Notes: generated by a model not told the origin, from the letters alone. Counted from the first letter of the stretch, positions 21,456 to 44,992 are shown. The stretch is 64,000 nt of DNA from a bacterium (GCA_030652805.1 JAUSPT010000024.1:37050-101049), one strand, 5' to 3'. Made by a program: numbers and translations.

Positions 21456-21472
21456 AGTAATAGGAGAGATCT

Positions 21473-23407: not shown

Positions 23408-23439
23408 TCACTAAATATTTACGACGACGGAGTGTAATA

Positions 23440-25439: not shown

Positions 25440-25511
25440 ATCGTATATCGTATACAGCACACGGCTAACGAAATACGGACGACGAAATACGAAATACAGC
25501 ATGCAAAGCGC

Positions 25512-25529
25512 TGTAGAATAGAGTCTACA
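25512..25529. promoter_or_regulatory. palindromic upstream activator sequence candidate (TGTAGA-N6-TCTACA)
   Basis: Perfect 6-bp inverted repeat about 190 bp upstream of the -24 element; shares the half-site with the 25567 palindrome. Confidence 0.5.
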
Positions 25530-25566
25530 CTATATAAAGGAACACGTAGGGTTGTTGTAAAATAAA

Positions 25567-25584
25567 TTCTACACAGATGTAGAA
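25567..25584. promoter_or_regulatory. palindromic upstream activator sequence candidate (TTCTACA-CAGA-TGTAGAA)
   Basis: Perfect 7-bp inverted repeat about 120-135 bp upstream of the sigma54 -24/-12 element; typical bEBP enhancer distance. Confidence 0.55.
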
Positions 25585-25701
25585 ACAACTCTACGCTTTT
25601 TGCCTTTAAATTTCCTCTGCTTTTAAGCTCCTCAGAATTCTTTCAAAAGATATTTTTAAAAAAGAGGATACGCAAGCCGAAATTTTTTTTAGCAGATACT
25701 T

Positions 25702-25717
25702 TGGCACGGAATTTGCT
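25702..25717 (+). promoter_or_regulatory. sigma54 (RpoN) -24/-12 promoter of gvpA
   Basis: TGGCACGgaatTTGCt. Exact match to TGGCACG-N4-TTGCW with correct GG/GC spacing; about 113 bp upstream of gvpA ATG; NtrC-type activator encoded immediately upstream. Confidence 0.8.
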
Positions 25718-25830
25718 TTTACAATACAGATGGTCGCAGATGAAAAATCGCAGATGGGTACAGATGTTCAATCTGCGCTGGTCTGTGAAAATAATCTGCG
25801 CTAATCTGTGAAAGAGGGGAGGTGGAAAAA

Positions 25831-26037
25831 ATGGCAGTAGAAAAAGCAATCGGTTCATCTAGTTTGGTTGAGGTTATTGACAGAATCCTTGACAAGGGTG
25901 TTGTGGTTGATGCATGGGTTAGAATTTCTTTAGTTGGTATTGAATTACTCGCTATTGAAGCAAGAGTCGTAGTCGCATCAGTCGAGACATACCTGAAGTA
26001 TGCTGAAGCAATTGGTCTAACCGCAACAGCAGCTTAA
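25831..26037 (+). CDS. gvpA: gas vesicle structural protein GvpA
   Basis: [60 protein letters not shown]. Near-identical to the canonical GvpA core; AGGTGG RBS before ATG 25831 (ORF track starts at upstream GTG). Confidence 0.95.
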
Positions 26038-26226
26038 GTATAGTTTAAAAAAAGGATTCTTGCCGAGCCACCCTTTTGAGCGCAGATTGGCGCAGATGTA
26101 AAAGACAGATGCACACAGAGAAATCTGTGATAATCAGCGTAAAAAAATCAGTGTTAATCTGTGGTTTAAACAGCATGGTTCGCCAAGAGATTCCTTTTTC
26201 CGTTCTGAGAAAAAAGGGGTAAAATT

Positions 26227-26925
26227 ATGGGAAGTGCCGAGGAAATGAAGAATTTGGCGCAAGGAATTGTTTCTTCTTATCAGGCCAGAGTTTCTGAAGT
26301 AGCCACGGTCATGGACAATGCTCACCAAATTCTTGAAGATTTTAAGCTCAAAAGAAGTGAGATGAGCAGTCAACTTAGAGAAACCCTTGCCAATGGAGAG
26401 TCTCTCAGAAAAAAGGATTTTGATAATATGATGAAAGGCATCCTTTCCCATCAAGAAGAAAGAGAAAAAGAGGTAAAAGATTTATTAAAGACTTTTTTTG
26501 AAGAACAAAAAGAAATAGCTGAAGCCATTAGGAAGAATTTGGCCGAAGGCGAAAGCGTGAGAATAAGTGATTTTAAAAAGATGCTCCAGGATATTCAGGC
26601 AAGGCAGAAACTCAGGGAAAATGAAGTAAGAACGACCCTAAAGGAATTTCAGGAAGGACATAGGGAGATGGCTGAGTCTTTGCACAGCCTTTTAAATAAA
26701 GAAGAGTCCTTACGGATTGAGGACTTTAAAGAGATGCTAAAAGATATTCGTTCAAGACAGATAGAGCGGAAAAAAGAAGTCAGAACCAAACTTGATGAAT
26801 TCAGGAAAGAACATCAAAATATGACTTCCGAATGGAATAAACTAACCGGTCTTATGGCCGAGAAAAGAGCCAGCAAGCTGAGAGGAGGTGAGAGAGAGGA
26901 AAAGTTGGAAGTTGCCAGGGTTTAA
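26227..26925 (+). CDS. tandem-repeat coiled-coil protein, candidate GvpC-like gas vesicle scaffold/strengthening protein
   Basis: Three ~50-aa repeats of pattern L..GES.R..DFK.ML.DI..RQ..RE.EVR..L.EF...H..M; hydrophilic, predicted all-helical; directly downstream of gvpA as gvpC is in cyanobacteria. Confidence 0.5.
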   Translation: MGSAEEMKNLAQGIVSSYQARVSEVATVMDNAHQILEDFKLKRSEMSSQLRETLANGESLRKKDFDNMMKGILSHQEEREKEVKDLLKTFFEEQKEIAEAIRKNLAEGESVRISDFKKMLQDIQARQKLRENEVRTTLKEFQEGHREMAESLHSLLNKEESLRIEDFKEMLKDIRSRQIERKKEVRTKLDEFRKEHQNMTSEWNKLTGLMAEKRASKLRGGEREEKLEVARV

Positions 26926-26995
26926 TTTTGGATCCTGGGTAAGTAACCTGATGTATGGGAACTAAGAAACTAGAAGTTTAAGAGGAGGAATAAAG

Positions 26996-28027
26996 ATGGG
27001 AATAGCAAGTGATATCAAAGCACTGGGTGAGGACATTGTTGCCTCTTATGATACGCGAGTAAGGGCGATAGGTGTGCTTGTCAAGGACGTCGACAAAATG
27101 CTTAAGGGTCTTCATACGGATCATAAGAGTATGGCTGCCAATCTTAAAGCTGGCCTTAACAAGGGAGAAGAAGATAGGCTCAATGCCTTTAAGCCAATGA
27201 TAGCAGAAATTCAGAAGCGGACAAAGGAAATAGAAGTCTATGTTAAAACTCTGCTCAAAAAGTTTCACAGCGAGCATATGGAAATGTCTGCCAATCTTAA
27301 TGCCTCTCTTGCAAAAGGAGAAGAGGATCGACTTAAGGACTTTAGAGCAATGATGGCTGATGTTAAGAAGTTTGTAGCGGATATGGTTGATACGACTGCG
27401 AAACTGATGAAGCAAATTCAGGCTGAACAGAAAGATAGAAATAAAGGAGTAGCTGATCTCCTTGCAAAGTTTGCGCAAGACCATGCATCTATGGCAGATG
27501 AGCTTAGAAAAAGCCTTGCAAAAGGAGAAACAAACAGGCTTGAAGACTTCAAAAAGATGATAGATAGTATCCAAAAATATGTGGCTGATGTAATTAGTGC
27601 GACTAAGCAGCTAATTAGCGAAATTCAAGCAAGGCAGGATGAGAGAAACAAAGAGGTTCTTGCTCTCTTACAGGCATTCCAGGCCGAAAGAGAAAAGATG
27701 GCTGCTAACTGGCAGGCTCTGGCTGCAACAATGGAGAAGAGAAGAGGCGGTAAGCCGATTCCAGTTAAAGTAGAAGCCAGGCAGGAAGTAAAGACTGTTG
27801 AAGAGGCAGTGAAAGAAAAACCCAAAGCTAAACCTAAGGCTGGGCCTAAACCCAAAACACCTGAAGGTCAGATATTAGCTTTGCTTAGGGAGCATGCTGA
27901 AGGCATGAGCTTGCCGAATTTAGGAAATGAAGCAGGCTGCCACTTTATAAAGCTGACCAGTCCAATGAGAGGTCTGCTGGATAAAGGCAAAGTTAGAAAA
28001 GAAGATAATCTTTACTTTATTGCTTAG
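26996..28027 (+). CDS. tandem-repeat coiled-coil protein (paralog of 26227 gene) with K/P-rich linker and C-terminal winged-helix-like domain
   Basis: Repeats ...SLAKGEEDRLKDF.AMM.D..K.V.D...; KPKAKPKAGPKPKTPEG linker; C-terminal ILALLREHAEGMSLPNL... Confidence 0.5.
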   Translation: MGIASDIKALGEDIVASYDTRVRAIGVLVKDVDKMLKGLHTDHKSMAANLKAGLNKGEEDRLNAFKPMIAEIQKRTKEIEVYVKTLLKKFHSEHMEMSANLNASLAKGEEDRLKDFRAMMADVKKFVADMVDTTAKLMKQIQAEQKDRNKGVADLLAKFAQDHASMADELRKSLAKGETNRLEDFKKMIDSIQKYVADVISATKQLISEIQARQDERNKEVLALLQAFQAEREKMAANWQALAATMEKRRGGKPIPVKVEARQEVKTVEEAVKEKPKAKPKAGPKPKTPEGQILALLREHAEGMSLPNLGNEAGCHFIKLTSPMRGLLDKGKVRKEDNLYFIA

Positions 28028-28043
28028 TGAATGGAGGTGAAAG

Positions 28044-28364
28044 ATGAGCGAGATAAAATGTGCTTTCTGCAAAGGCACGGGCAAGGATCCATTTGATCTT
28101 CTATCCGAGCTTGCTGTCTGCCAGGTTTGCGGAGGCAGGGGTAAAGTTGAGGTAAAAGAGCCGGCAATCAAGTGTGTCTTTTGTAGCAGCACCGGTATCT
28201 ATCCTCGTAGTCGAGTTACCTGCACTGTATGTAATGGCAAAGGAATGGTTGCGGTTAAAGGCGCGACTGACGAGTGCCCTAAGTGCAAAGGCACAGGCAG
28301 AGCAATAGATAGCGGACTTCCCTGCATTAAATGTGGAGGCAAAGGGGTCGTTTCAAAAAAATGA
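28044..28364 (+). CDS. DnaJ-type cysteine-rich zinc-finger (CxxCxGxG repeat) protein
   Basis: Six CxxC(x)GxG motifs (CAFCKGTG, CQVCGGRG, CVFCSSTG, CTVCNGKG, CPKCKGTG, CIKCGGKG), as in DnaJ CR domain. Confidence 0.7.
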   Translation: MSEIKCAFCKGTGKDPFDLLSELAVCQVCGGRGKVEVKEPAIKCVFCSSTGIYPRSRVTCTVCNGKGMVAVKGATDECPKCKGTGRAIDSGLPCIKCGGKGVVSKK

Positions 28365-28546
28365 CTGAATTAAACTCCTCCAGGGAAGACTTTCTTAGAA
28401 AAAGAAAGGAAGCGTTAGATAAGTTGAGTTCCTGCCGGGAAGGTTTTAGAAGGAAGGAGAAGAGAATAAAAGCGGATTTGGCAGAGGCGGGCAAGACTTG
28501 GGAGAAAGTGAGCCAAAAGTTCAAGTGGTGGCAGTCTCTGCCCTAG
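28361..28546 (+). CDS. small basic hypothetical protein
   Basis: ATG overlapping upstream stop (ATGA); MTELNSSREDFLRKRKEALDKL...; no recognisable domain. Confidence 0.3.
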   Translation: MTELNSSREDFLRKRKEALDKLSSCREGFRRKEKRIKADLAEAGKTWEKVSQKFKWWQSLP

Positions 28547-28586
28547 AGGAAAAGAAAACAAAAATCAAAAAAGGAGGTAAGATAAG

Positions 28587-29507
28587 ATGGCAGCTGTTGA
28601 GGAGATGACCACAGTACTTGAACCAAGTCCTTTATCAGACTTTGTGGAAACAAAGTATGTGAAGGATGTCACTAATCGGACACTTTCCTATATTAAGGCC
28701 GGTTTTCCGGTCCATTTTCGAGGTCCTTCAGGGACAGGAAAGACCACTCTGGCTATGCATGTAGCCAGTAAGGTTAAAAGGCCGGTGGTAATGATTCACG
28801 GGGATGAAGAGTTTACAACCTCTGATTTGGTGGGTGGTGAACATGGCTACAGGTTTAGAAAGGTTGTAGACAGATTTGTCTCCAGGGTGTTGAAAGTGGA
28901 AGAAGATATGGTAAAGCGCTGGGTGGATAACCGTTTAACGGTTGCCTGTAAGTATGGTTTTACCCTTATCTATGATGAATTCACACGTTCCCGTCCTGAG
29001 GCAAACAATATTCTTCTCTCTATTTTGCAGGAGAAGATGATGGATCTGCCAGTGGGAAGAGGCGGAGAAGAACCGTATTTAAAGGTTGACCCTGATTTTA
29101 CCGCTATTTTCACATCAAACCCTGAGGAATATGCCGGAGTTCATCGGAGTCAGGACGCTCTTAGGGACAGAATGATAACCATGGATTTGGACCATTTTGA
29201 TTATGATACGGAAATAGGTATTACCAGGGCAAAATCCAAACTCTCTAAACAAGATTCTGAGAGGATAGTTAATATTGTAAGAGGATTGAGGGAATCAGGA
29301 AAGTGTGAGTATGCACCAACCGTACGCGGCTGTATTATGATTGCTAAGACGCTTAAAGTTCTGGGCACTGCTCCTGCTAAGAGTAATGGTTCCTTCAGCG
29401 CGATGTGTCAGGACATATTGGCTTCTGAGACCAGTAGAGTTGGCTCAAAGACGAATCAGGACAGGGTAAAGGGGATAGTTAAGGAGTTGGTTAAGAAATA
29501 TAGTTAA
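28587..29507 (+). CDS. gvpN: gas vesicle protein GvpN (AAA+ ATPase)
   Basis: Walker A GPSGTGKTTLAMHVA, Walker B LIYDEF; length and position typical of GvpN (CbbQ/NirQ-like AAA+). Confidence 0.88.
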   Translation: MAAVEEMTTVLEPSPLSDFVETKYVKDVTNRTLSYIKAGFPVHFRGPSGTGKTTLAMHVASKVKRPVVMIHGDEEFTTSDLVGGEHGYRFRKVVDRFVSRVLKVEEDMVKRWVDNRLTVACKYGFTLIYDEFTRSRPEANNILLSILQEKMMDLPVGRGGEEPYLKVDPDFTAIFTSNPEEYAGVHRSQDALRDRMITMDLDHFDYDTEIGITRAKSKLSKQDSERIVNIVRGLRESGKCEYAPTVRGCIMIAKTLKVLGTAPAKSNGSFSAMCQDILASETSRVGSKTNQDRVKGIVKELVKKYS

Positions 29508-29585
29508 AAGACAGAGGGCAGAAGGCAGAAAGCAGAAAAATCTGCTCTCAGAAATCTGGTTTCTGAATAAGAGAGGAGAAAGAAA

Positions 29586-29756
29586 ATGACACTGATGAGG
29601 ACGTTTTCTAAAGTGGAAAAAGATGGGAAGATAAAACTTCCCGGTAATATTCAGCGAGCAGCAGGTCTTAAAGAAGGCCAGTTGATTGAGCTGAAGATTG
29701 TAGGAGCAAGCAGGAAGAAGAATATCTTGCTCTCGGCTAAAGATAGCGCAAGATAG
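29586..29756 (+). CDS. AbrB/MazE/SpoVT-type swapped-hairpin DNA-binding protein (56 aa; not in ORF track)
   Basis: MTLMRTFSKVEKDGKIKLPGNIQRAAGLKEGQLIELKIVGASRKK. Classic AbrB-N pattern (KVxxxGxIxIPxxIRxxLGIxxGDxV); preceded by TCAGAAA-TCTGG-TTTCTGA palindrome and GAGAGGAGAAAGAAAATG RBS. Confidence 0.5.
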   Translation: MTLMRTFSKVEKDGKIKLPGNIQRAAGLKEGQLIELKIVGASRKKNILLSAKDSAR

Positions 29757-29791
29757 GTCTGTAAGTTTCTCACATTATAAGGGAGAGAACA

Positions 29792-30127
29792 ATGAAGGAT
29801 GTTAATAGTCTGCCGGGACTCCATAAGTTGAGGACTATGTTTAGTGCCAAGAAGAGGTCCATACCAAAGGTTCAAAGCTCGGGTTATTTAGATTTGTATA
29901 TGCTCGGGAAAGAGAAAGAGAGACTCCTGAAGGAAGATGAGAGGCTGGATATGAGAAAAGACACTCTCAAGAAGCGCCTGGAGGAGATAGACCTGGAGAT
30001 GAATCAACTACAGGAGGTCTCGAAAAGCGGGATTAAATCTGCTCCGGACATAGGTTTTTCAGGAGGCACTTTCACGCAGAAAAATGGAGTCAAAAAAGAG
30101 TGGAAAAAGATGTCTTTAAATTATTAA
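29792..30127 (+). CDS. hypothetical protein (gvp-locus accessory)
   Basis: ORF with coiled-coil central region; no recognisable motif. Confidence 0.4.
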   Translation: MKDVNSLPGLHKLRTMFSAKKRSIPKVQSSGYLDLYMLGKEKERLLKEDERLDMRKDTLKKRLEEIDLEMNQLQEVSKSGIKSAPDIGFSGGTFTQKNGVKKEWKKMSLNY

Positions 30128-30148
30128 CAACTGCATAGGTGGTTGAGA

Positions 30149-30541
30149 ATGAATTGGAACACATTTGACTTTAAAAGCGGGAAAAGCGGAAGAACCAGGT
30201 CAGGACGAAGGATAGGTGAGATTTTGGAAGGGGATAAGTTTAGATGTTCATTATGCAGAGGCACAGGGATATTACCCCGAACCAAGGGCACAAGATGTCA
30301 TGTATGTAAAGGCTCAGGCATAGTTTCCTTAACCGGACCGGCAGTAGTATGCGCTTACTGCAAAGGCAGAGGCGATTATCCGCCGAGGACAAGTCTTACC
30401 TGTACGGTTTGCGGAGGGAAGGGTTTAGTTAGCATTACCAAACCCATTGAAATATGCGAACATTGCCGGGGAACCGGTGCTGAGCCGGGCAATAAACTAC
30501 CTTGCTTAAAATGCAAAGGTAAGGGTGTGATTACAAAATAG
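30149..30541 (+). CDS. DnaJ-type cysteine-rich zinc-finger protein (paralog 2)
   Basis: CSLCRGTG, CHVCKGSG, CAYCKGRG, CTVCGGKG, CEHCRGTG, CLKCKGKG; AGGTGG RBS, ATG at 30149. Confidence 0.7.
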   Translation: MNWNTFDFKSGKSGRTRSGRRIGEILEGDKFRCSLCRGTGILPRTKGTRCHVCKGSGIVSLTGPAVVCAYCKGRGDYPPRTSLTCTVCGGKGLVSITKPIEICEHCRGTGAEPGNKLPCLKCKGKGVITK

Positions 30542-30558
30542 AAATCGGGAGAGAGACT

Positions 30559-30816
30559 ATGAAAATAGAAGAAGTAGAGAAGGCGATCACAGATTTCTTT
30601 AAGAGCAGTCTTGGTGGAAAGGCAAAAGTAATAAAGATAGTAAAATCTCAGGATGGCTGGACAGGTGAGGCAGAGATTTATGAGGAGAGTTCATTTATTA
30701 AATCTTTAGGACTATCTACCAGAGTTCAGGATAGGAATATTTACGGGATTAAATTGACTGATGCCTTGGAAGTGGTCTCTTACGCGCGAAAAGAGGGATC
30801 TGTAAAAGAGGAATAA
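30559..30816 (+). CDS. GvpO/GvpR-like gas vesicle protein
   Basis: DGWTGEAEIYEESSFIKSLGLSTRVQDRNIYGIKLTDALEVVSYARKE resembles GvpO core (GW.A.VEVVER...DTQD..GRYE..LD...V.GY.R.RR). Confidence 0.55.
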   Translation: MKIEEVEKAITDFFKSSLGGKAKVIKIVKSQDGWTGEAEIYEESSFIKSLGLSTRVQDRNIYGIKLTDALEVVSYARKEGSVKEE

Positions 30817-30831
30817 AAATAAGGAGCAATT

Positions 30832-31128
30832 ATGACTAATAAAATGGCTCATGCTACTGAGGCGACGAATCTTGCGGATATTTTAGAAAGGGTTCTGGAT
30901 AAGGGGATAGTTATTGCCGGGGATATTAAGATCCAAATTGCCGACATTGATCTTCTCACTATCAAAATAAGGCTGTTGGTTGCCTCTGTGGATAAGGCAA
31001 TGGAGATGGGGATAAATTGGTGGCAGCAGGATTCTTATCTTTCTTCTGAAGCAAAAGAGAAAGAAATAGAGAACGAAAATAAATCCTTAAAAAAGAGATT
31101 AGAACGGTTAGAAGCGAAGATAAAATAA
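30832..31128 (+). CDS. gvpJ: GvpA-family minor gas vesicle protein (GvpJ/GvpM-like)
   Basis: ANLADILERVLDKGIVIAGDIKIQIADIDLLTIKIRLLVASVDKAMEMG, GvpA fold with extended C-terminus. Confidence 0.85.
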   Translation: MTNKMAHATEATNLADILERVLDKGIVIAGDIKIQIADIDLLTIKIRLLVASVDKAMEMGINWWQQDSYLSSEAKEKEIENENKSLKKRLERLEAKIK

Positions 31129-31132
31129 AGAA

Positions 31133-31441
31133 ATGACCAGTATGGAGCGTGAGACTTTAGATGTTATTGCTGAAAATGAGGAGAGAGTCCATTATTACTT
31201 AATAGCTCAGGAATTAAAGGTAAGCGCTCATTATGCCTATGTGATTTGCAAAGGGCTTGAGAGAGACAAATATGTTGATTTTGATACATTTAAAGGAGTA
31301 TGCAGCTTAACAGAAAAAGGTAAAGAAACAGTGGAAGAGAATTGGCTTTTTAAACTTAAGCAGCAAAAGCAGAATATTCAGAAGAGAAGAAAAGAAAATA
31401 AGGGAAAAATTTCTAAGAATGTTGAGGTTGTAAATTATTAA
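31133..31441 (+). CDS. small winged-helix DNA-binding protein (MarR/ArsR-like)
   Basis: LDVIAENEERVHYYLIAQELKVSAHYAYVICKGLERDKYV. HTH + wing pattern; basic C-terminus. Confidence 0.5.
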   Translation: MTSMERETLDVIAENEERVHYYLIAQELKVSAHYAYVICKGLERDKYVDFDTFKGVCSLTEKGKETVEENWLFKLKQQKQNIQKRRKENKGKISKNVEVVNY

Positions 31442-31444
31442 GAC

Positions 31445-31657
31445 GTGAGTATAACAGCTACAGAATTAGAAATACTAAGAATTATAAAAAAGAAAAACGG
31501 TTTAATATCTATGAAAGAGTTAAGCAGTAAAGCAGGGTTTGAGATAGGCTATACCTACATGTTGTGCAAGTCCCTGGAAAAGCAGGATTGTATTGGGTTT
31601 TTTACCCATTCATCTTGTAGAATAACTGCAACAGGCAAAGGTCTGATAAGCGAATAG
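31445..31657 (+). CDS. small winged-helix DNA-binding protein (paralog)
   Basis: ELEILRIIKKKNGLISMKELSSKAGFEIGYTYMLCKSLEKQDCI. Same HTH pattern as the 31133 gene. Confidence 0.5.
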   Translation: MSITATELEILRIIKKKNGLISMKELSSKAGFEIGYTYMLCKSLEKQDCIGFFTHSSCRITATGKGLISE

Positions 31658-31666
31658 GAGGTCGAA

Positions 31667-32053
31667 ATGAGCTGGCAAACAATGGAGTGGAATAAACAAA
31701 AGATCGGGCGCAGAGGAGAGATTTTAACCAGGGATGTCTACAGATGCGGTTTTTGTAGAGGCACAGGTCTCCTTTCTTCTAAAAAGGGGATAAAATGTCC
31801 TGTTTGTTTAGGTAATGGAGAGGCAAAGGTTTCATCTCCGGCTGTAATTTGCGCTTATTGCAATGGAACGGGAAAAAGACATCCTCGAACTACCCTCACC
31901 TGTACTGTTTGCCGAGGAAAGGGTGTTGTGAGCGTGGGAACTTCTGATATTGAAGCTTGTCCTACTTGCAAAGGAATAGGCAGGGAACGCGGCAGGACTC
32001 TTCCCTGTTTAACCTGCAAAGGGACAGGCGTTATTCCTAAAAAGAAGAGATAA
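31667..32053 (+). CDS. DnaJ-type cysteine-rich zinc-finger protein (paralog 3)
   Basis: CGFCRGTG, CPVCLGNG, CAYCNGTG, CTVCRGKG, CPTCKGIG, CLTCKGTG. Confidence 0.7.
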   Translation: MSWQTMEWNKQKIGRRGEILTRDVYRCGFCRGTGLLSSKKGIKCPVCLGNGEAKVSSPAVICAYCNGTGKRHPRTTLTCTVCRGKGVVSVGTSDIEACPTCKGIGRERGRTLPCLTCKGTGVIPKKKR

Positions 32054-32085
32054 TATTTTAGTATTAAATGTACAGGGAGAAAAAA

Positions 32086-32604: not shown

Positions 32605-32607
32605 TAT

Positions 32608-35711: not shown

Positions 35712-35712
35712 A

Positions 35713-35847
35713 ATGGCAGGGATTATTGAGAAAATTAAAAACTTTTTTAGCAGCATGTGTATATGCAAAGTTAAGAAGGAAAAAGAAGAACCTAAACTGC
35801 AACAGGAAGAGCCTAAGGTAGAGGAAAAACCTGAAGAACAAAAATAA
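35713..35847 (+). CDS. small protein with K/E/P-rich tail (44 aa; not in ORF track)
   Basis: MAGIIEKIKNFFSSMCICKVKKEKEEPKLQQEEPKVEEKPEEQK; tail resembles that of the 14209 gene product; AAGG..GGTGG RBS. Confidence 0.3.
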   Translation: MAGIIEKIKNFFSSMCICKVKKEKEEPKLQQEEPKVEEKPEEQK

Positions 35848-35862
35848 TAAACAAGGTGTAAA

Positions 35863-36867: not shown

Positions 36868-36874
36868 TAGGAAT

Positions 36875-37645: not shown

Positions 37646-37646
37646 G

Positions 37647-38414: not shown

Positions 38415-38653
38415 TGTTTTTAATTGATGATATATTCCTTGCGCCATTGAAAGGGGTGGTTTGGCTTGGCAAGAAGATGAATGAGGTTATAGAGAAGGAA
38501 ATCTCTGATGAAGGGCGGATAAAAGAGAAACTTATGGAATTACAAATGCAGTTTGAACTTGATGAAATAAACGATGAAGAATATAAGAAGCAGGAAGAAG
38601 AACTTTTAGCGCGATTGGACGCTATTAGAAAAGCAAAAGAAGAGGAGGTGTGA
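38414..38653 (+). CDS. gvpG: gas vesicle protein GvpG
   Basis: MFLIDDIFLAPLKGVVWLGKKM... typical GvpG N-terminus; ATG overlaps upstream TAA. Confidence 0.8.
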   Translation: MFLIDDIFLAPLKGVVWLGKKMNEVIEKEISDEGRIKEKLMELQMQFELDEINDEEYKKQEEELLARLDAIRKAKEEEV

Positions 38654-38913
38654 AGATGGCTAATATGGAAGAAGCTAAGAAAGCAGTTGCAGAGTTTTTA
38701 AAAAAGACCCTTAATGTCAAAGATGTAAAGGTTATTAAGGTTGGAAAGAGCGAAAAGGGCTGGGAGACAGAAGCAGAAGTATATGAAGAAAGTTCATTTA
38801 TAAAGGCTCTCGGACTTCCAACAAGAGTAAAGGACCGGAATATCTATGAGATTAAATTGGATGATAAGTTGGAAGTAGAGTCTTACGAACGTAAAAAGGA
38901 AGAGAAGGAATAG
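38650..38913 (+). CDS. GvpO/GvpR-like gas vesicle protein (paralog of 30559)
   Basis: KGWETEAEVYEESSFIKALGLPTRVKDRNIYEIKLDDKLEVESYERKKEE. About 55% identical to 30559 product. Confidence 0.55.
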   Translation: MKMANMEEAKKAVAEFLKKTLNVKDVKVIKVGKSEKGWETEAEVYEESSFIKALGLPTRVKDRNIYEIKLDDKLEVESYERKKEEKE

Positions 38914-38959
38914 AGGCAGTGATAAGAGAGAAGAAGGGAGGCAATAAAGGAGGAACGAG

Positions 38960-39325
38960 ATGGCTTTAGAGGCGACAAGAGGTAATGGTGGTGATAACGG
39001 AACTCTGGTTGACGTAATAGACCGCATTCTGGATAAGGGTTTAGTCATCAATGCGGATATTACTGTATCCGTAGCGGGGGTTGAATTACTTGGTGTAAAG
39101 GTTCGGGCAGCTCTGGCTTCATTTGAAACCGCAGCAAAATATGGTTTAGAATTCCCCTCAGGCACTAATTACGAAACCGCGGCATGGAAAGAGGCGGCAA
39201 AAGGTAAAGATGAATGTCCGCAGTGTGCTAAAAAGGTACTGACAGATGAACTGATGAATAAAGGATGCCCTTGGTGCGGCTGGCAAAGCGCTAAGGCAAA
39301 ACTAAAACCAAAACAAATAGTCTAA
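38960..39325 (+). CDS. GvpA-family domain fused to C-terminal zinc-ribbon
   Basis: [48 protein letters not shown], then CPQC...GCPWCGW. Confidence 0.75.
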   Translation: MALEATRGNGGDNGTLVDVIDRILDKGLVINADITVSVAGVELLGVKVRAALASFETAAKYGLEFPSGTNYETAAWKEAAKGKDECPQCAKKVLTDELMNKGCPWCGWQSAKAKLKPKQIV

Positions 39326-39330
39326 ATTCT

Positions 39331-39597
39331 ATGAGCAAAAAGGAAAAATCGAGATTAGGCGGGTTTAATCTTCTAGGCATTCCTCTAGACCCTACTTTGG
39401 GTGTAGGAGATAAGGTTTTAGACCATGTAGATGAATCAATAGAAGCTGAAAAAAGAAAAGAAGCGGGTTCTAAATATTGGGCCCGTTGCTCTTTCTATTA
39501 CACTGTTTGCCCTAAATGCAGTCGTAAGGTAATTACTGAAGAGTTGGAAGAAAAGGGATGTTTTGTTTGTGGATATAAACCTAATAAGGAGGAGTGA
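39331..39597 (+). CDS. stand-alone zinc-ribbon protein homologous to C-terminus of the 38960 gene product
   Basis: CPKCSRKVITEELEEKGCFVCGYK parallels CPQCAKKVLTDELMNKGCPWCGWQ. Confidence 0.5.
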   Translation: MSKKEKSRLGGFNLLGIPLDPTLGVGDKVLDHVDESIEAEKRKEAGSKYWARCSFYYTVCPKCSRKVITEELEEKGCFVCGYKPNKEE

Positions 39598-39600
39598 CAT

Positions 39601-39990
39601 ATGCGCGTTAAAATTAACACAAATAGAGATATAAAAAGTAACATGGACATTGCAAGAAAACAGAAGATACCATCTATGACATCAAAGATAGAGGATATAG
39701 TAAAGGCAGAATTGGAAGAAGAATTTGGACCAACATTGACAGAGGAAGAACTCTCTAAAATAGCCCAGAAGGAAAAAGAGAGAAAAGTAAAGCGGGATTT
39801 GGCCTTGAAAAACTCTAGGATGAAAATAATGAGGGTAAAGGAAAAGGCGAGGGAGACTCAGAGGATAAGACAGGAAATAGCTAAGGGGAAAACTTGCCAC
39901 CACATCAAGGATTTTAGCGCGGGGGCAAACCTCAAAGTTAGCGGAGATTCTAGAAAAGAGAGGTTTAAGAAAATGAATATTGAATACTAA
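39601..39990 (+). CDS. hypothetical highly charged protein
   Basis: ORF in gvp locus; K/E/R-rich; no motif recognised. Confidence 0.4.
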   Translation: MRVKINTNRDIKSNMDIARKQKIPSMTSKIEDIVKAELEEEFGPTLTEEELSKIAQKEKERKVKRDLALKNSRMKIMRVKEKARETQRIRQEIAKGKTCHHIKDFSAGANLKVSGDSRKERFKKMNIEY

Positions 39991-40038
39991 TCTTGCTGCA
40001 AGTTGTTTTATTTGTGGATATAAGGGAGGATAAAGGAA

Positions 40039-40605
40039 ATGGATGAAGAAAAAAAGCGAAATCCTGAGAAGCAAAGAGATAAAAAGAAAGAACCTGGTAG
40101 AGAAAAGGAAGAGGGTATAGCAGGAGAAACTCTTAAAGGGATTGGTAAGATGATTCCAGGATTGGGTGGATTGTTCAGGGGTCTGAGAAAATCTCCAGTA
40201 TTCAAAGAAAGATTAAAAAAGATTGATGAAGAAGTAGAGCGCAAGTTGAAGGAAGCTCCCTTAGAAAAGACAGAAAAAGGAAAATTTAAGATAGAGGGAA
40301 AGTTTGAAGCAAGGCATTTAGCTCCAGATAAACCATTTATGAGAAAGGAAGTTTCTCCTCCAATGCCACAGGAAAGGTCAGCAGATATTTTTGACGAGGA
40401 AGATCATATTAAAATAATAGCTGAAATCCCCGGCGTAGATGCAAATGATATAAATCTTAATTTGCAAGGGAATAAACTTACTATATCTGTAGATACCCTT
40501 GACCGTAAATATCATCAGGAATTGAAACTACCCTGCGAACCTAAAGGGGAATTGCAGAAGTCTTATAAGAATGGGATCTTAGAAGTAAAGATAAAAAAGG
40601 AATAA
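40039..40605 (+). CDS. Hsp20/alpha-crystallin-domain protein, GvpH-like (paralog 2)
   Basis: ADIFDEEDHIKIIAEIPGVDANDINLNLQGNKLTISV...QKSYKNGILEVKIKKE. Confidence 0.75.
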   Translation: MDEEKKRNPEKQRDKKKEPGREKEEGIAGETLKGIGKMIPGLGGLFRGLRKSPVFKERLKKIDEEVERKLKEAPLEKTEKGKFKIEGKFEARHLAPDKPFMRKEVSPPMPQERSADIFDEEDHIKIIAEIPGVDANDINLNLQGNKLTISVDTLDRKYHQELKLPCEPKGELQKSYKNGILEVKIKKE

Positions 40606-40629
40606 TTTTTCATTGGAGCAAAATGACAT

Positions 40630-40953
40630 ATGCCAATAGATATTGATGAGGATAATCTAAAACACGGGGTTTTAGGGCTGGTTATTGCTTTAGTGGAGGT
40701 AATTAAAGATGCTCTTAATCTCCAGGCAATGAAACGTATGGAGGGAGGATCTCTTACGGAAGAAGAGATGGAACGATTGGGCGAAGCCCTTATGGATTTA
40801 GATGTGGCAATTGAGGATATAAAAAAGGAACAGGGTGTTACTGAGTCAGTTAAATCCGTAAGGGATGGATTGGATAGTATTGTGGATGATGTATTAGACA
40901 AGATGATAAATCCAGAAAGATGGAGGAAAGAAGCAGAGGAGAAAGGAATTTAA
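40630..40953 (+). CDS. gvpK: gas vesicle protein GvpK
   Basis: GVLGLVIALVEVIKDALNLQAMKRMEGGSLTEEEMERLGEALMDLD matches GvpK signature (GLAKLVLTVVELLR..LERQA.RR...GSLT.EE.ERLGEAL.DLD). Confidence 0.8.
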   Translation: MPIDIDEDNLKHGVLGLVIALVEVIKDALNLQAMKRMEGGSLTEEEMERLGEALMDLDVAIEDIKKEQGVTESVKSVRDGLDSIVDDVLDKMINPERWRKEAEEKGI

Positions 40954-40954
40954 G

Positions 40955-41719
40955 ATGAATGAAGCAAGATATCTTTATTGTATAGCCGATGGAAATAAAA
41001 AGATAACATTTGGCAATATTGGAATAGAGGATAGCGAAGTCTACACTATCCCTTATGAAGATTTATGCGCTGTAGTTCATAATTGTCCTTCAGAGCCCTA
41101 CAAATCAGAGGATAATGAAGTGGTGAAAAAATGGGTAACGGCTCACCAGAAGGTTGTTGATACTGTCTGGGGAAAATTTGGCACTGTCTTACCATTGGGT
41201 TTTGATACCATAATTAAAGGCGAGAAGGGGACTACCCCGGATAAGAATATGAAGAATTGGATTAAAGAAGATTACAAAAATTTAAAAGAAAAGATAGCTA
41301 AGCTTAAAGGCAAGGCTGAGTATGGGGTTCAGATTTCCTGGGACCCTAAGGTGATTGGAGAAAAGTTAATAGAAAGTAATCAAGAGATTAAGAAATTAAA
41401 TGAGGAGATAAAATCCAAATCCAAGGGTCTTGCTTATATGTATAAACAGAAACTGGAGAATCTCTTGAAGAAAGAGATGGAAGTGGAGGCGGAAAGGCAT
41501 TTTAAAGATTTTTACGAGAAAATTAAAAAATGTGCGAATGAAATTAAAGTAGAAAAGACTAAAAAACTTGAAGAAGGAAAACAAATGCTGATAAACCTTT
41601 CTTGTCTTTTACCCAAAGAAAAAAGCAAGGTATTAGGCGAGGAGTTAGAAAAGATTAACGATATGGAAGAATTCTACGTTCGCTTCACTGGTCCCTGGCC
41701 GCCATATAGTTTTGTATAG
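40955..41719 (+). CDS. GvpF/GvpL-family gas vesicle protein (4th paralog)
   Basis: RYLYCIADGNKKITFGNIGIEDSEVYTIPYEDLCAVVH; FTGPWPPYSF. Confidence 0.75.
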   Translation: MNEARYLYCIADGNKKITFGNIGIEDSEVYTIPYEDLCAVVHNCPSEPYKSEDNEVVKKWVTAHQKVVDTVWGKFGTVLPLGFDTIIKGEKGTTPDKNMKNWIKEDYKNLKEKIAKLKGKAEYGVQISWDPKVIGEKLIESNQEIKKLNEEIKSKSKGLAYMYKQKLENLLKKEMEVEAERHFKDFYEKIKKCANEIKVEKTKKLEEGKQMLINLSCLLPKEKSKVLGEELEKINDMEEFYVRFTGPWPPYSFV

Positions 41720-41727
41720 GATAAAAA

Positions 41728-42834
41728 ATGGAACCGACCCGCAATGTTCAGGCAACTTTGGTTGATTTATTGGATAGGATACTGGATAAGGGGCTGGTAA
41801 TCAACGCCGATATTATCATCTCTGTGGCTGGTATTCCTTTAATCGGCGTTAATTTGAGAGCGGCGTTAGCAGGAATGGAGACTATGCTTAAATACGGGGT
41901 GATGCAGTCCTGGGATGAGAAGAGCAGGGCATGGGAGAGGGAACATCAGAAGAAGGCTCTTCCTTCTCTGGTTGAAGGGGAGAAGATCGCCCTGAAAATA
42001 TATGGTTCTTATTATTATAGTAAAGGAATATATAATGCCTGGAAACCAGGCTATTTTTATTTAACTAATAAAAGGCTTATTCTTCACCGTCAGGATTTTG
42101 ATGAAATCACCTTTCAGATACCATTAGAAAAAATAAAAGCATTAATAGTGAAAGAGGAAGAGCATTTTGTTAAAGAAAAGAAAAAACAGGTGCTTTATCT
42201 TATGGATAGACAGGATCAAGCGCATCGGCTTAGCGCAGTAGAGGCAAACCAATTAAAAGAGGCTATTGAACAAAGAATAAAGGATATGGGACTTTGTCTG
42301 GAAGAAAATCCTGTTCTTCCAGAGTTTGTGGATGAGCGAATTGCAGGTTCGCTGATGGAAGAAGAAAAGGTTAGTCATCAAGGGAAGAAAGTGTGGTATT
42401 TAGTGCCGCCTGAAGGAATTCAACAAGAGACCTGGAGACCGGGTCATCTCTATCTTACCAATAAAAGATTATTTTGGTGGTATGATTTTGATAAAAGAAT
42501 AGTTTTTGATGTTTCTGTTGATAAAATAGTTGGCGTTAATGCCGAGATGAGAAAAACAAGCGGTCTTGATAGTAAGAAAGAGAAAATCCTTGATATACTA
42601 TACGGGGTTAATTCAACAAAAAGAACAGCTTCTTTTGCCGGAAAGGAAATAGATGAATGGGCGGAAGCGCTAAACAGGATTGTTCCCGGCAAGATAAATG
42701 AGGAAATCGAAACCTGCCCCCAGTGCGGCAGGCCCGCCCCGGCCAAAGAATTATTAGAAGAGAGTTGCCAGAGCTGTGGCTGGGTCAGCCCTAGATTAAA
42801 AAAGAAGATAGCTCAAGCGGCTTTATCAGCATGA
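41728..42834 (+). CDS. GvpA-family domain fused to two GRAM/PH-like domains and a C-terminal zinc ribbon
   Basis: N-terminus ATLVDLLDRILDKGLVINADIIISVAGIPLIGVNLRAALAGMETMLKYG (GvpA fold); two W(K/R)PG(Y/H)(F/L)YLTNKRL modules (GRAM/bacterial PH signature); CPQCGR...CQSCGW. Confidence 0.7.
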   Translation: MEPTRNVQATLVDLLDRILDKGLVINADIIISVAGIPLIGVNLRAALAGMETMLKYGVMQSWDEKSRAWEREHQKKALPSLVEGEKIALKIYGSYYYSKGIYNAWKPGYFYLTNKRLILHRQDFDEITFQIPLEKIKALIVKEEEHFVKEKKKQVLYLMDRQDQAHRLSAVEANQLKEAIEQRIKDMGLCLEENPVLPEFVDERIAGSLMEEEKVSHQGKKVWYLVPPEGIQQETWRPGHLYLTNKRLFWWYDFDKRIVFDVSVDKIVGVNAEMRKTSGLDSKKEKILDILYGVNSTKRTASFAGKEIDEWAEALNRIVPGKINEEIETCPQCGRPAPAKELLEESCQSCGWVSPRLKKKIAQAALSA

Positions 42835-44039
42835 GAAGTTATTTAGATACTATAAGAAAACCGGTTAATTTACCTTTGCTTCAGGGCGAAGAAGTGCTTA
42901 AGTATTTTACGGCGAGCTACGATGTTGGGAGTTCACTTGCCTCATCCTGGAGACTGGGAAATTTATATCTTACCAATAAGAGACTGCTTTTTGTCCAGGG
43001 AAGAAAGATACTATTTGAGGGCCTGCTCAGCCAAATAAAGACTATAAATATAGTAAAGAGAAGATGGATTTTGGGTAAGAAAGTAAAACAACTAAGTATA
43101 GTATCTGAAGGCAGGAGAGCGCCATATATTGCCATAAAAGACCCTGAAGAATGGAAAAAAGCAATCCTTTCTGATCCACAGTCCCCAGTCCATAACTCGC
43201 AACCTGATGAAGTAATTTTAAAAGGAAGGGGTGGTTATTTAACTCCCGGTCAATCAAAGTGGAGGCTTGGCACTCTTCTCCTTACCAATAAAAAACTCGC
43301 ATTTTCCCAGTTGAGGGGAATTGTATGGGAGACGCCACTCAGCAGTATTAAGGGTTTAAGAATAGAAAAAAGAGTTTACGGGGTCAGTAAAAGTGATGCG
43401 ATATGTGTGGAATATGAATCTTTGGGTGAATTATTAAAAGCATGGATTATATCGCTTAATTTAGAGACTTGGAGAAAAGAGCTATATGAGAGAGTATTAC
43501 TAAAAGTAGATCGGGAGACATTAGATAAAATTGTTACCGAATTGGATCCAGGTTCAAAAGGGATACTCTGGTTTCTTTATGAGAACCGACACGCAAGAAT
43601 CGATATCTTAGCCAAGCTCATAAAGTCTCCTACCCATATGGATGTTTTACTTAAAATAAGGGAGATTATAAACCCAACAGCTGAAAAGCTCATCGGCTAT
43701 CCTATACTCTCATTCGAGAGTTCAAAAGTTGACTGGGAAACTGGCGAGAAAGTTACGTTTAGCTGGTGGCTCGCTGGTCAGCCTTATAGAGAGAAAATGG
43801 AGCCGCTTCTGGACATATTTGATGAGGATGCTGAGCTGGTAGTCTATTTAGAGATGGTAGGTATTAAAGAAGATAAGTTATGCTTAAGTGTGGTGAATAA
43901 CAAACTTATTATTGATGCAGATAAAAATTATCATAAAGAAATTTCTCTTCCCGCAGTGGTTAATACAAATAGTTTTACCAAGAGGTATAAAAATAATATA
44001 TTGGAAGTAAGGTTAAAAAAGGGAAAGTGTAACAGGTGA
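42831..44039 (+). CDS. two GRAM/PH-like domains fused to C-terminal Hsp20/alpha-crystallin domain
   Basis: WRLGNLYLTNKRLLFVQ and WRLGTLLLTNKKLAFSQ modules; C-terminal ACD LLDIFDEDAELVVYLEMVGIKEDKLCLSVVNNKLII...KRYKNNILEVRLKK. Confidence 0.7.
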   Translation: MRSYLDTIRKPVNLPLLQGEEVLKYFTASYDVGSSLASSWRLGNLYLTNKRLLFVQGRKILFEGLLSQIKTINIVKRRWILGKKVKQLSIVSEGRRAPYIAIKDPEEWKKAILSDPQSPVHNSQPDEVILKGRGGYLTPGQSKWRLGTLLLTNKKLAFSQLRGIVWETPLSSIKGLRIEKRVYGVSKSDAICVEYESLGELLKAWIISLNLETWRKELYERVLLKVDRETLDKIVTELDPGSKGILWFLYENRHARIDILAKLIKSPTHMDVLLKIREIINPTAEKLIGYPILSFESSKVDWETGEKVTFSWWLAGQPYREKMEPLLDIFDEDAELVVYLEMVGIKEDKLCLSVVNNKLIIDADKNYHKEISLPAVVNTNSFTKRYKNNILEVRLKKGKCNR

Positions 44040-44716
44040 GAAAACTTATTTATGTGCCGATTATACATATGAGCGCTGACTTAGGCAGTGTTGCCAAGCA
44101 GGTAAATAAAAGAGGTATTGCAGATTTTGGAGAGGAATTCTGGAAGAAACACAGAGAGACTGTGTCCGGCTTTTGGGATTCGATTGTAAAATATTTTGCC
44201 AATTTAGAGGTTAAAGATTTTAAGATATACCAGGATGGCTTGGTAGCTGATGGAGAAGTTGGCCAAAAAATAGTGGAGGAAGGCGTTAAATCCGGCAGTA
44301 AAAATTATGAAGTTATCGATGATTTATTGAAGAAAGGGGGGATTTTAGTCCAGACAGAGGATTTCCCTCTGGTTAAAGAAGAAAGAGATCGTATTGTTAA
44401 AATTACCCAGGCTAAGACGATAACAACGAAGTTAATAGCATATTTAGGATATAGATTGACTAAGGATTGGTTACTAAGGAAAAGAGATAATTATATAGCT
44501 AAGAGGATAGATGAAACTTTAGAACATGGCGGAGAAAAGGGCATCCTCTTTTTAGGTGCATACCACAACATAATACCTGAACTCTCTAAAAAAATTCAGA
44601 TAACTGAGGTAAAGGAAGCAAAAAAAGTAAGGGATTATCAAAGATTGCTTCTCTCATTTAGAAAGAATAAAGAAGAATTTGAAGAGTTAGCAAGATATTT
44701 AATCTCACCAATATAA
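44036..44716 (+). CDS. hypothetical protein, last gene of gvp locus
   Basis: ORF contiguous with cluster (alternative GTG start at 44036, ATG at 44066); no motif recognised. Confidence 0.4.
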   Translation: MRKLIYVPIIHMSADLGSVAKQVNKRGIADFGEEFWKKHRETVSGFWDSIVKYFANLEVKDFKIYQDGLVADGEVGQKIVEEGVKSGSKNYEVIDDLLKKGGILVQTEDFPLVKEERDRIVKITQAKTITTKLIAYLGYRLTKDWLLRKRDNYIAKRIDETLEHGGEKGILFLGAYHNIIPELSKKIQITEVKEAKKVRDYQRLLLSFRKNKEEFEELARYLISPI

Positions 44717-44889: not shown

Positions 44890-44962
<73 letters not shown>

Positions 44963-44992
44963 CAAACTTATCATAACTTTATGGGAGAATAT

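Follow-up and report, generated by a model that had tools for sequence, protein, structure and literature searches.

The 64,000-nucleotide stretch of bacterial DNA analysed here (GCA_030652805.1, JAUSPT010000024.1:37050-101049; hereafter the window) carries a gas-vesicle (gvp) gene cluster in which genes for canonical gas-vesicle proteins (Gvp) are interspersed with genes for chaperone-like proteins, among them a CDC48/VAT-type unfoldase, a Get3-type ArsA ATPase, small heat-shock proteins (sHsps), DnaJ-type zinc fingers (ZnF) and a J-domain fused to a Gvp. The locus belongs to a widespread and previously uncharacterised class of gas-vesicle cluster, of which the linkage of ArsA and Hsp20 to gvp genes was already known. 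We consider it probable that this is a sigma-54-controlled gas-vesicle operon, and that its class spreads horizontally and keeps a proteostasis set of its own in permanent linkage with the canonical Gvp; the roles of that set we infer from domain identities and linkage.

Linkage of gvp and proteostasis genes across phyla

The CDC48 protein of the window was scanned against one genome per species, which yielded 80 loci, and all window proteins were then compared with these. Bacterial CDC48 proteins with 63-95% identity were obtained from about 38 loci, and every one of them with enough flanking DNA lies in a gvp context. The gvp-linked CDC48 is spread over about 30 species genomes and more than ten phyla, with representatives in Nitrospinota, Nitrospirota, Omnitrophota, Planctomycetota (including Scalindua rubra and a Brocadiaceae genome), Thermodesulfobacteriota, Elusimicrobia, Chlamydiota, Desantisbacteria, WOR-3, Hakubella and others. 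Archaeal homologues found in the same scan (47-60% identity) have no gvp neighbours. In Pyrobaculum (L043 and L046, about 10001-12730) CDC48 is followed after ~260 nt by an Hsp20 gene in the same orientation, again in the absence of gvp genes, which suggests an archaeal proteostasis pair that was later co-opted and may be the ancestral pairing.

Eighteen loci are fully covered. All of them encode GvpA, GvpN, GvpG, an Hsp20 and a GvpF/L protein with a fused J-domain (GvpF~J), and the coiled-coil protein CC1 occupies the position after gvpA in 17. The small coiled-coil protein u111 and the 226-aa protein u226 are present in 15 loci each, ArsA in 14, an NtrC-type gene upstream of gvpA likewise in 14, and zinc-finger proteins in 12. 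The genes are usually arranged as (NtrC)-GvpA-CC1-CC2-(ZnF)-GvpN-u111-Hsp20-ArsA-CDC48-GvpF~J-GvpF-GvpF-GvpG-GvpO-GvpF'-GvpJ-(GvpK)-GvpJ-u226. A second subtype (subtype II), found in Planctomycetota, Auribacterota and Eubacteriales metagenome-assembled genomes (MAGs), has two GvpN, a two-domain ArsA and more zinc fingers; its distal block reads GvpJ~Zn - zinc ribbon - Hsp20 - GvpK - GvpF - GvpJ~PH - PH~Hsp20 - u226 (for the fusions see Table 1). GvpA is 88-96% identical across subtype-I loci and 78-86% in subtype II. A first-pass annotation of the window had argued for one functional module rather than unrelated neighbours, and the same gvp context in ~38 bacterial CDC48 loci, wherever flanks suffice, bears this out. 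The extra genes recur in homologous gvp loci, so no case against the module can be made from their absence there.

Gene content of the window cluster

The region 25822-44716 comprises 32 consecutive plus-strand open reading frames (ORFs), mostly separated by 0-50 nt and in several cases overlapping at their start and stop codons (Table 1), and thus the single co-directional, tightly packed block (25.5-44.7 kb) that had been described. A terminator scan gave no convincing intergenic intrinsic terminator across the cluster; matches fell inside coding sequence only. The gvp core consists of GvpA, GvpN, four GvpF/L, GvpG, GvpK, two GvpO and three GvpJ/M-type proteins, and the chaperone-like part of VAT/CDC48, the Get3-type ArsA, three sHsp domains, three DnaJ-type zinc-finger proteins, GvpF~J and tandem PH/GRAM fusions. 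Profile searches upheld the GvpA/F/K/G/N assignments of the first-pass annotation at curated cut-offs, and with them its core set (gvpA, N, J, G, K, two GvpO-like and four GvpF/L genes), the three DnaJ CR-type zinc-finger proteins, the J-domain fusion, the CDC48-like double AAA+ ATPase and the ArsA/Get3-like ATPase. Its GRAM/PH-domain fusions are backed by profile, model and fold matches, and its zinc ribbons by CxxC-N15-18-CxxC pairs in the sequence. Two of its labels could not be confirmed: the supposedly AbrB-like 56-aa protein has no match in Pfam to E 5 or in NCBIfam to 0.01, and the two small proteins called winged-helix gave MarR/HTH_24 matches below threshold only. CC1 and CC2, the 71-aa ORF, the u111 family, the terminal 226-aa gene and the sigma-54 promoter were absent from that annotation.

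The start of gvpA is most likely the ATG at 25831, whereas the listed ORF begins at a GTG at 25822; the match to the GvpA-specific model NF006874 (cut-off 100 bits) aligns from residue 4. The third GvpF/L (GvpF3) most likely starts at 37647. All four GvpF/L genes were assigned by PF06386 (E ~1e-50 to 1e-68). GvpJ1 shares 79% nt identity with the terminal GvpJ of the nearest relative of the locus, L002. CC1 and CC2 are paralogues (BLASTP E 3e-37), and CC1 is a candidate GvpC-like outer-surface protein. No protein of the cluster matched the GvpC family (Gas_vesicle_C repeats) in Pfam or NCBIfam, and CC1/CC2 as GvpC homologues were rejected on the same searches. GvpC is not universal among gvp clusters.

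The flanks of the cluster contain housekeeping genes (FTHFS, EF-G, PtsI, PGI, MetK, AddA) and no transposase or integrase genes, and insertion by a mobile element was rejected. Downstream, a tRNA-Ala(GGC) sits between the last cluster gene and hpf-ptsN-hprK, and neither an integrase nor a repeat scar was seen there. A defence-system reading was also discarded (IteA-like score 225 against a cut-off of 510).

Table 1. Features of the gvp cluster and its surroundings in the window (positions counted from the first nucleotide of the window; where two bit scores are given, the second is the cut-off)
Feature	Position	Strand	Basis
MEDS-PAS histidine kinase	19758-21455	+	Pfam
Receiver-HisKA protein	21473-22159	+	Pfam
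Histidine kinase	22156-23229	+	Pfam
Receiver protein (GYF-like receiver)	23440-24048	+	Pfam
NtrC-type sigma-54-dependent response regulator (REC + Sigma54_activat + HTH_8)	24060-25439	+	PF00158 E 7e-71
Three palindromes TGTAGA-N7-TCTACA	25512-25596	+	repeat and inverted-repeat search
Sigma-54 promoter TGGCACGGAATTTGCT	25702-25717	+	TGGCAC-N5-TTGCW, 0 mismatches
Long hairpin in gvpA 5' leader, CAGATG / AATCTGCGC repeats	25725-25810	+	minimum free energy -41.4 kcal/mol, z -6.9
gvpA, major shell protein	25831-26037	+	68 aa from ATG 25831; PF00741 E 2e-16; NF006874 131 bits
Conserved stem-loop directly 3' of gvpA	26051-26197	+	covariance model R1; tip expanded in window by leader-hairpin repeat
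CC1, coiled-coil, three 51-aa repeats	26227-26925	+	autocorrelation peak at lag 51; no Pfam/NCBIfam family
CC2, CC1 paralogue, 51/69-aa repeats, Lys/Pro-rich linker, small C-terminal domain	26996-28027	+	repeat analysis
ZnF1, stand-alone DnaJ-CR-type, six CxxCxGxG	28044-28364	+	PF00684 44 vs 32.7 bits
Conserved small ORF, 71 aa (about 113 aa elsewhere)	28331-28546	+	tblastn matches, same position, 7 loci
gvpN, AAA+ (AAA_5) ATPase	28587-29507	+	TIGR02640 339.5 vs 266.8 bits; PF07728
56-aa conserved protein	29586-29756	+	homologues after gvpN in 10 loci; no family match
u111, small coiled-coil protein	29792-30127	+	C-terminal K-x-M-x-(I/L)-x-Y-COOH; no Pfam/NCBIfam family
ZnF2, DnaJ-CR-type, six motifs	30149-30541	+	PF00684 50 bits; PDB matches to DnaJ CR domains 2ctt, 1exk
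GvpO paralogue GvpO1	30559-30816	+	45-66% identity to GvpO2-position proteins of 20 other loci; weak PF05800
GvpJ1, GvpJ/M-type GvpA paralogue	30832-31128	+	PF00741 E 2.5e-17
Two small proteins, possibly winged-helix	31133-31441, 31445-31657	+	homologues in a few subtype-II loci
ZnF3, DnaJ-CR-type, six motifs	31667-32053	+	PF00684 46.4 bits
Hsp20a, archaeal type/GvpH-like sHsp	32068-32604	+	PF00011 32.1 vs 20.8 bits
ArsA ATPase, single-domain Get3/TRC40 type, 311 aa	32608-33543	+	PF02374 E 5e-79; TIGR00345 265 vs 135 bits
CDC48/VAT-type double-ring AAA+ unfoldase	33543-35711	+	TIGR01243 921 vs 803 bits
GvpF/L with C-terminal J-domain (GvpF~J)	35863-36867	+	PF06386 E 8e-50; PF00226 40.4 bits
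GvpF/L, second	36875-37645	+	PF06386 (with third: E 1e-62 and 5e-68)
GvpF/L, third (GvpF3)	37647-38414	+	PF06386 (with second: E 1e-62 and 5e-68)
gvpG	38414-38653	+	PF05120 72 bits
gvpO (GvpO2 position)	38650-38913	+	PF05800 27 vs 25 bits
GvpJ-type protein with C-terminal zinc ribbon (GvpJ~Zn)	38960-39325	+	PF00741; CxxC pairs in sequence
Zinc-ribbon protein	39331-39597	+	CxxC pairs in sequence
u129, weak u111 paralogue	39601-39990	+	ends KKMNIEY (39970-39990); u111 vs u129 E 0.003
Hsp20b, second sHsp	40039-40605	+	PF00011 24.2 vs 20.8 bits
gvpK	40630-40953	+	PF05121 67 bits
GvpF/L, fourth	40955-41719	+	PF06386 E 1e-67
GvpJ/M-type domain, two PH/GRAM-like domains and zinc ribbon (GvpJ~PH)	41728-42834	+	PF00741; Vps36-GLUE 34 vs 24 bits
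PH~Hsp20: two GRAM/PH-like motifs, middle domain, C-terminal Hsp20	42831-44039	+	NF041800 E 5e-19; weak GRAM/Vps36
u226, 226 aa	44036-44716	+	candidate ChaN/EreA/TIKI/RRSP-like fold; no Pfam family
tRNA-Ala(GGC), downstream border of the locus	44890-44963	+	ARAGORN, Rfam

Unfoldase, Get3-type ATPase and u226

In the PDB, CDC48 matched Thermoplasma VAT best (E 1e-214). The alignment retains both Walker B motifs, and each ring carries one aromatic pore loop (KFYG and KYVG); Pfam resolves CDC48_N, CDC48_2, two AAA and two AAA_lid_3 domains. The C-terminal HbYX motif is absent from the window protein, the tail of which reads ...NEIKGGG. HbYX is the docking motif for the 20S proteasome in many archaeal CDC48 proteins, with no family-wide requirement for it.

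The adjacent ArsA carries the deviant Walker A P-loop GKGGVGKT. Chlamydomonas ARSA1 and archaeal Get3 were its best PDB matches (residues 7-310) and align over the full length, whereas E. coli ArsA aligns with the N-terminal half only. A CGFC motif at residue 260 stands where Get3 dimers are bridged via zinc, and zinc binding is predicted; CxFC is kept by every single-domain homologue, and the two-domain forms have it in each half. Pfam-type profile searches found no arsB, acr3 or arsR in the locus.

For u226, 1009 homologues were found in the protein database, nearly all unnamed. A Foldseek search against the PDB returned a weak ChaN match only (E 0.037), and at the level of the fold, as a moderate assignment, the protein may also resemble RRSP, EreC and the TraB/TIKI group. 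The residues G174-A-Y-H177 are invariant, and H11, E108, E116 and D151 vary little or not at all. The active-site motif of the superfamily, which we take to be GxxH ... E ... GxxH, differs in that the first motif of u226 is PIIH. The u226 gene directly abuts CDC48 in 8 loci, on either side, and its product is a candidate hydrolase and CDC48 partner.

A variant arrangement was seen in loci of deltaproteobacterial type (L006, L007, L014, L017, L026 and L076, about 12135-13600), where three genes come after CDC48, one for a 206-aa u226 paralogue, a short Hsp20-like one and one for a stand-alone receiver domain. L002 (11251-12371) has an Hsp20-like gene and receiver insert at the same place after CDC48, which the window lacks.

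J-domain fusion, zinc fingers, sHsps and PH/GRAM fusions

The J-domain of GvpF~J (PF00226 cut-off 27.8 bits) contains the HPD motif at residues 286-288, which does not vary among 25 aligned homologues and was found in 29 of 32 loci. The fusion has 1130 homologues, nearly all unnamed, and the best 120 all have both domains. Short Hsp70 genes lie inside the gvp clusters of a Methanobacterium sp. (L082, 13089-14558), a Eubacteriales MAG (L020, 18527-19945) and a Planctomycetota MAG (L039, 15176-16642). In L082, a cluster of the same class, a short 489-aa Hsp70 gene directly follows GvpF~J, and this neighbourhood, together with Hsp70 in two bacterial gvp loci, is the best support for a real partnership between the J-domain and Hsp70.

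ZnF1 occupies the same position in many related loci. A complete type I DnaJ was rejected, the J-domain being on GvpF and the CR fingers in three separate proteins (TIGR02349 33-39 bits against 377). Of the sHsps, Hsp20a approaches the NCBIfam model 'archaeal Hsp20' (NF041800, 134 against 140 bits, E 4e-39) and weakly matches GvpH (PF05455 E 6e-4). An AlphaFold (AF2) model of GvpJ~PH, computed from 34 homologues, shows two PH-like units (residues 87-186 and 215-318), the PH-like unit being a seven-strand beta-sandwich capped by a C-terminal helix. Foldseek related this model to BBS5, the tandem PH domains of FARP, Rtt106/FACT and CheF (E 1e-8 to 1e-5). The protein has 934 database homologues, nearly all unnamed, and the neighbouring PH~Hsp20 carries WRxGxLYLTNKRL motifs.

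In u111, the terminal K-x-M-x-(I/L)-x-Y (30107-30127 in the window) is shared by all 24 homologues, one per locus. The Phi-x-Phi pattern of this tail is reminiscent of IxI tails, which dock on sHsp domains, and to assume the same of u111 would be speculation.

Regulatory elements and RNA structures around gvpA

The sigma-54 promoter is the sole match without mismatch in the 64 kb, its 3' end lying 114 nt upstream of the gvpA ATG, and perfect sites upstream of gvpA were also found in six relatives (L002, L004, L006, L013, L014 and L017). The three palindromes are located 105-190 bp ahead of the -24/-12 element and are probably upstream activating sequences for the adjacent NtrC-type activator. 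The four signalling genes at 19758-24048, which share 91-93% nt identity with L002, probably feed this activator. Their link to the gvp genes is drawn from adjacency, and they may provide the sensory input for buoyancy control.

Directly 3' of gvpA, a stem-loop of ~65 nt is present in all subtype-I loci; its arms (GGAUUCUUGCCGAGCCA ... UGGCUCGCCAAGAAAUUCC) are conserved and its tip varies. Across 20 sequences, 91% of cells are paired and seven pairs show compensatory changes, which none of 500 shuffles matched; slid controls reached 36-53% paired. A covariance model (R1) built from 20 other loci, with the window excluded (L002 4256-4330 and 19 more), recognised the window copy with 57.2 bits (E 5e-17). 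R1 finds exactly one copy per locus and scores the plus strand about twice as high as the minus strand. No Rfam family matches the gvpA flanks, including this element. The stem-loop may be a new cis-acting RNA of gvp operons, and it may plausibly set the ratio of gvpA to downstream transcript.

In the window, the tip of the 3' element (26075-26170) is itself a long hairpin (z -4.3) with the same CAGATG / AATCTG(C/T)G repeats as the hairpin of the gvpA leader. The CAGATG / AATCTGCGC repeat occurs in no other fetched locus and is therefore a local feature of the window.

Mosaic origin of the window cluster

The flanks of the nearest relative, L002, share 91-97% nt identity with those of the window, with the same neighbours on both sides. 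Within the cluster, Hsp20a-ArsA-CDC48 are 94% identical, the segment from GvpF~J to GvpO 93% and that from u226 onward 96.6%, while gvpA and gvpN reach only ~82% and divergent alleles stand in place of CC1/CC2. Two blocks of the window, 29507-32079 and 38913-44040, have no counterpart in L002, and the latter is the subtype-II distal block. In the region of lower identity the G+C content is raised (0.41-0.44 against ~0.37). The missing blocks, the divergent gvpA-gvpN and the near-identical flanks together identify the window cluster as a recombinant of two gvp subtypes. Modules of gvp clusters are thus exchanged by recombination, and the DNA swapped in is itself gvp-associated. The first-pass annotation had named a horizontally inserted, unrelated operon as the finding that would speak against its module; the two blocks did arrive by recombination, but from another gvp subtype.

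In Mariniphaga sp. (L083, 8495-12343) the distal block (GvpJ~Zn, GvpK, GvpF, GvpJ~PH, PH~Hsp20) stands by itself among housekeeping genes, and the 10 kb to each side contain neither gvpA nor gvpN.

Relation to known systems

Comparative genomics has placed an ArsA homologue and Hsp20 in gvp clusters of Polaribacter, Pelodictyon, Anabaena/Nostoc and an acidobacterium, with the proposal that ArsA energises one step in making the vesicles (Castillo and Saier, 2010; PMC2963123). These clusters resemble the present class in having an ArsA-family ATPase and Hsp20 beside gvpN, F/L, G, J and K. Their ArsAs are two-domain proteins of ~600 aa, whereas the window ArsA is the single-domain form with CxFC and the two-domain forms occur in subtype II. 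CDC48, the J-domain fusion, zinc-finger proteins, PH fusions and u226 are not mentioned there. The presence of ArsA and of Hsp20 (GvpH-like) in gvp clusters is not new, while for the remainder no report was found. A literature search for gas vesicles with CDC48, a J-domain fusion, DnaJ-type zinc fingers, PH fusions or a ChaN/TIKI-like protein beside CDC48 returned none, subscription journals being incompletely covered. MAG papers on Scalindua rubra, Euphemobacter and Hakubella noted gvp genes, in one case with a neighbouring hsp20, and not the rest of the set.

The haloarchaeal p-vac and c-vac clusters (gvpACNO and gvpDEFGHIJKLM) share the core GvpA, N, O, F, L, G, J, K and M, and their order A-C-N-O resembles A-CC1-CC2-N of the window. 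They also have an Hsp20-like accessory protein, GvpH, to which Hsp20a is weakly related. Regulation differs, with GvpD/E in haloarchaea and a sigma-54 activator here, and we know of no CDC48, Get3, J-domain, zinc-finger or PH-fusion genes in p-vac or c-vac. In Serratia sp. ATCC 39006, a bacterial gvp cluster is likewise under an NtrC-family regulator, reportedly with partner signalling proteins and the regulators gvrA/B/C. Its accessory genes are gvpV/W/X/Y/Z, and to our knowledge it contains no proteostasis module.

The window CDC48 has the N-D1-D2 architecture and aromatic pore loops of Thermoplasma VAT and other archaeal CDC48, which in Pyrobaculum also stands beside Hsp20. VAT is a known unfoldase. 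The bacterial clade differs from the archaeal proteins in being tied to gvp, and the window protein in lacking HbYX. Small proteins consisting only of CxxCxGxG motifs, such as BSD2 and Anti-TRAP, act as holdases or assembly factors, and the window zinc fingers match PF00684 and PF15777. Plant BSD2 is said to be a stand-alone DnaJ-CR zinc-finger assembly chaperone for Rubisco. Proteins of the BSD2/Anti-TRAP type have four motifs and the window proteins six each (three zinc centres), a comparison by motif alone.

A further parallel is the GET/TRC pathway, in which clients pass from Hsp70 and a J-protein to Sgt2 and then to Get3. The J-domain, the Hsp70 of some relatives, the zinc-bridged Get3-type ATPase and a very hydrophobic client all have their equivalents there. 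The client of that pathway is a membrane protein, whereas here it would be a soluble-shell protein, so that the analogy is one of mechanism only; no homologues of Sgt2, Get4/5 or the receptor were seen. A relay of hydrophobic clients by J-proteins and Hsp70 to Get3 has been described (PMC8054193). GvpA needs chaperoning, and its solubilisation and active vesicle degradation were named as open questions in a 2024 review (PMC10903477).

Proposed function and alternatives

Chaperone-assisted gas-vesicle assembly is a reasonable inference from the gene content, and a role of CDC48 in turnover or disassembly is equally possible. In the proposed mechanism, the upstream phosphorelay would activate the NtrC-type regulator, which would bind the three palindromes and fire the gvpA sigma-54 promoter, while the stem-loops flanking gvpA would raise the ratio of gvpA to downstream genes. 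The sHsps and DnaJ-type zinc-finger holdases would keep the extremely hydrophobic GvpA and its GvpJ/M paralogues soluble. Through its J-domain, GvpF~J could recruit Hsp70 to GvpF-bound GvpA, with host DnaK serving here and a dedicated Hsp70 in some relatives. The zinc-bridged Get3-type ATPase would shield or hand over hydrophobic segments, by analogy to the relay from Hsp70/J-protein to Get3 for tail-anchored proteins. GvpN and the remaining Gvp would build the shell, which CC1/CC2 may coat in a GvpC-like manner, and the PH/GRAM fusions could anchor an sHsp, among other factors, at GvpJ-type subunits of the shell or tip. Finally, the VAT/CDC48-type unfoldase, probably with u226, would extract or clear GvpA that is mis-assembled or belongs to collapsed shells.

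Several points weigh against this assignment. The class is known from genes alone, all relatives being uncultured, and gas-vesicle formation is predicted. No Hsp70 gene lies within the 64-kb window, and homology of CC1/CC2 to GvpC was undetectable with Pfam and NCBIfam. Given the KGGG tail, no protease partner of CDC48 is evident beyond the weakly assigned u226, and whether CDC48 acts in assembly, quality control or disassembly is not readable from its sequence. The absence of ArsA from four and of zinc fingers from six of the 18 fully covered loci indicates that not every component is essential.

The main rival holds that CDC48 and u226, perhaps with the sHsps, serve mainly regulated disassembly and recycling, pulling GvpA out of shells so that the cell loses buoyancy or reuses the protein. 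The threading pore loops of the VAT-like CDC48, the adjacency of u226 in 8 loci, its candidate fold, which is common to hydrolases and peptidases (RRSP, EreC, TraB/TIKI group), its conserved His/Glu/Asp residues and the question of active degradation posed in PMC10903477 all favour it. However, CDC48 lies mid-operon, with Hsp20/ArsA on one side and the GvpF genes on the other, and presumably shares a transcript with assembly genes, and the hydrolase role of u226 is that of a candidate, with a moderate fold assignment. We regard a machine devoted mainly to turnover as unlikely; it is also compatible with, rather than exclusive of, chaperone-assisted assembly.

It is rather improbable that the proteostasis genes are dispensable for assembly and chiefly shield the host from GvpA proteotoxicity after horizontal transfer. 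Transfer into distant phyla with differing chaperone networks would fit such a kit, and the high identity across phyla (GvpA 88-96% in subtype I, GvpN ~85%, CDC48 65-76%) indicates horizontal spread. The block exchange between two genomes with 91-97% nt identical flanks, the tRNA at the locus border and the proteotoxicity of heterologous gas-vesicle expression (PMC12848028) point the same way. The fusions of Gvp to chaperone domains (GvpF~J, GvpJ~PH, PH~Hsp20), however, argue for direct action at the assembly site. Assembly, turnover and host protection are not mutually exclusive.

The first-pass annotation had also raised a GvpA-shell-based nanocompartment, in which the extra proteins would be cargo or loading factors. 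This idea draws on the unusually many GvpA paralogues with added domains, and no cultured member with observed vesicles is known. It is very unlikely because GvpA is standard: it scores above the cut-off of the GvpA-specific NCBIfam model and hardly varies between loci. The locus also encodes GvpN, F, G, K, J and O, and profile searches found no enzyme cargo genes in it. Least credible, and close to negligible, is a chance neighbourhood in which a general heat-shock or stress operon landed inside a gvp cluster, as CDC48 and Hsp20 do pair up outside gvp loci in Pyrobaculum but about 30 loci from more than ten phyla share the linkage to gvp genes and the gene order, the bacterial CDC48 clade is essentially confined to gvp loci, and domain fusions join the two gene sets.

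The gas-vesicle operon with a linked proteostasis set remains the preferred explanation. A further-reaching reading, in which the CDC48 clade, u226 and the sHsps form a dedicated GvpA-extracting machine and GvpF~J, Hsp70 and the Get3-type ATPase a GET-like delivery route for a non-membrane shell protein, is put forward tentatively as a possibility.

Significance

The cluster class names testable candidates for GvpA solubilisation and insertion and for vesicle dismantling, namely GvpF~J, the Get3-type ATPase, the zinc-finger holdases, the PH-tethered sHsps and a VAT-like unfoldase that may have a hydrolase as partner. Ultrasound imaging uses gas vesicles as genetically encoded reporters, and proteotoxic stress restricts their production in heterologous hosts (PMC12848028); constructs of this kind could benefit from a natural cluster equipped with chaperones. 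The findings also place a bacterial CDC48 lineage in a context and indicate that gvp genes are common in uncultured anaerobic phyla. If the tentative proposal of an extracting machine and a delivery route is true, the cluster would represent the first enzymatic system for gas-vesicle quality control or disassembly, and a self-contained assembly-and-recycling pathway that lets an organelle move between phyla and domains.

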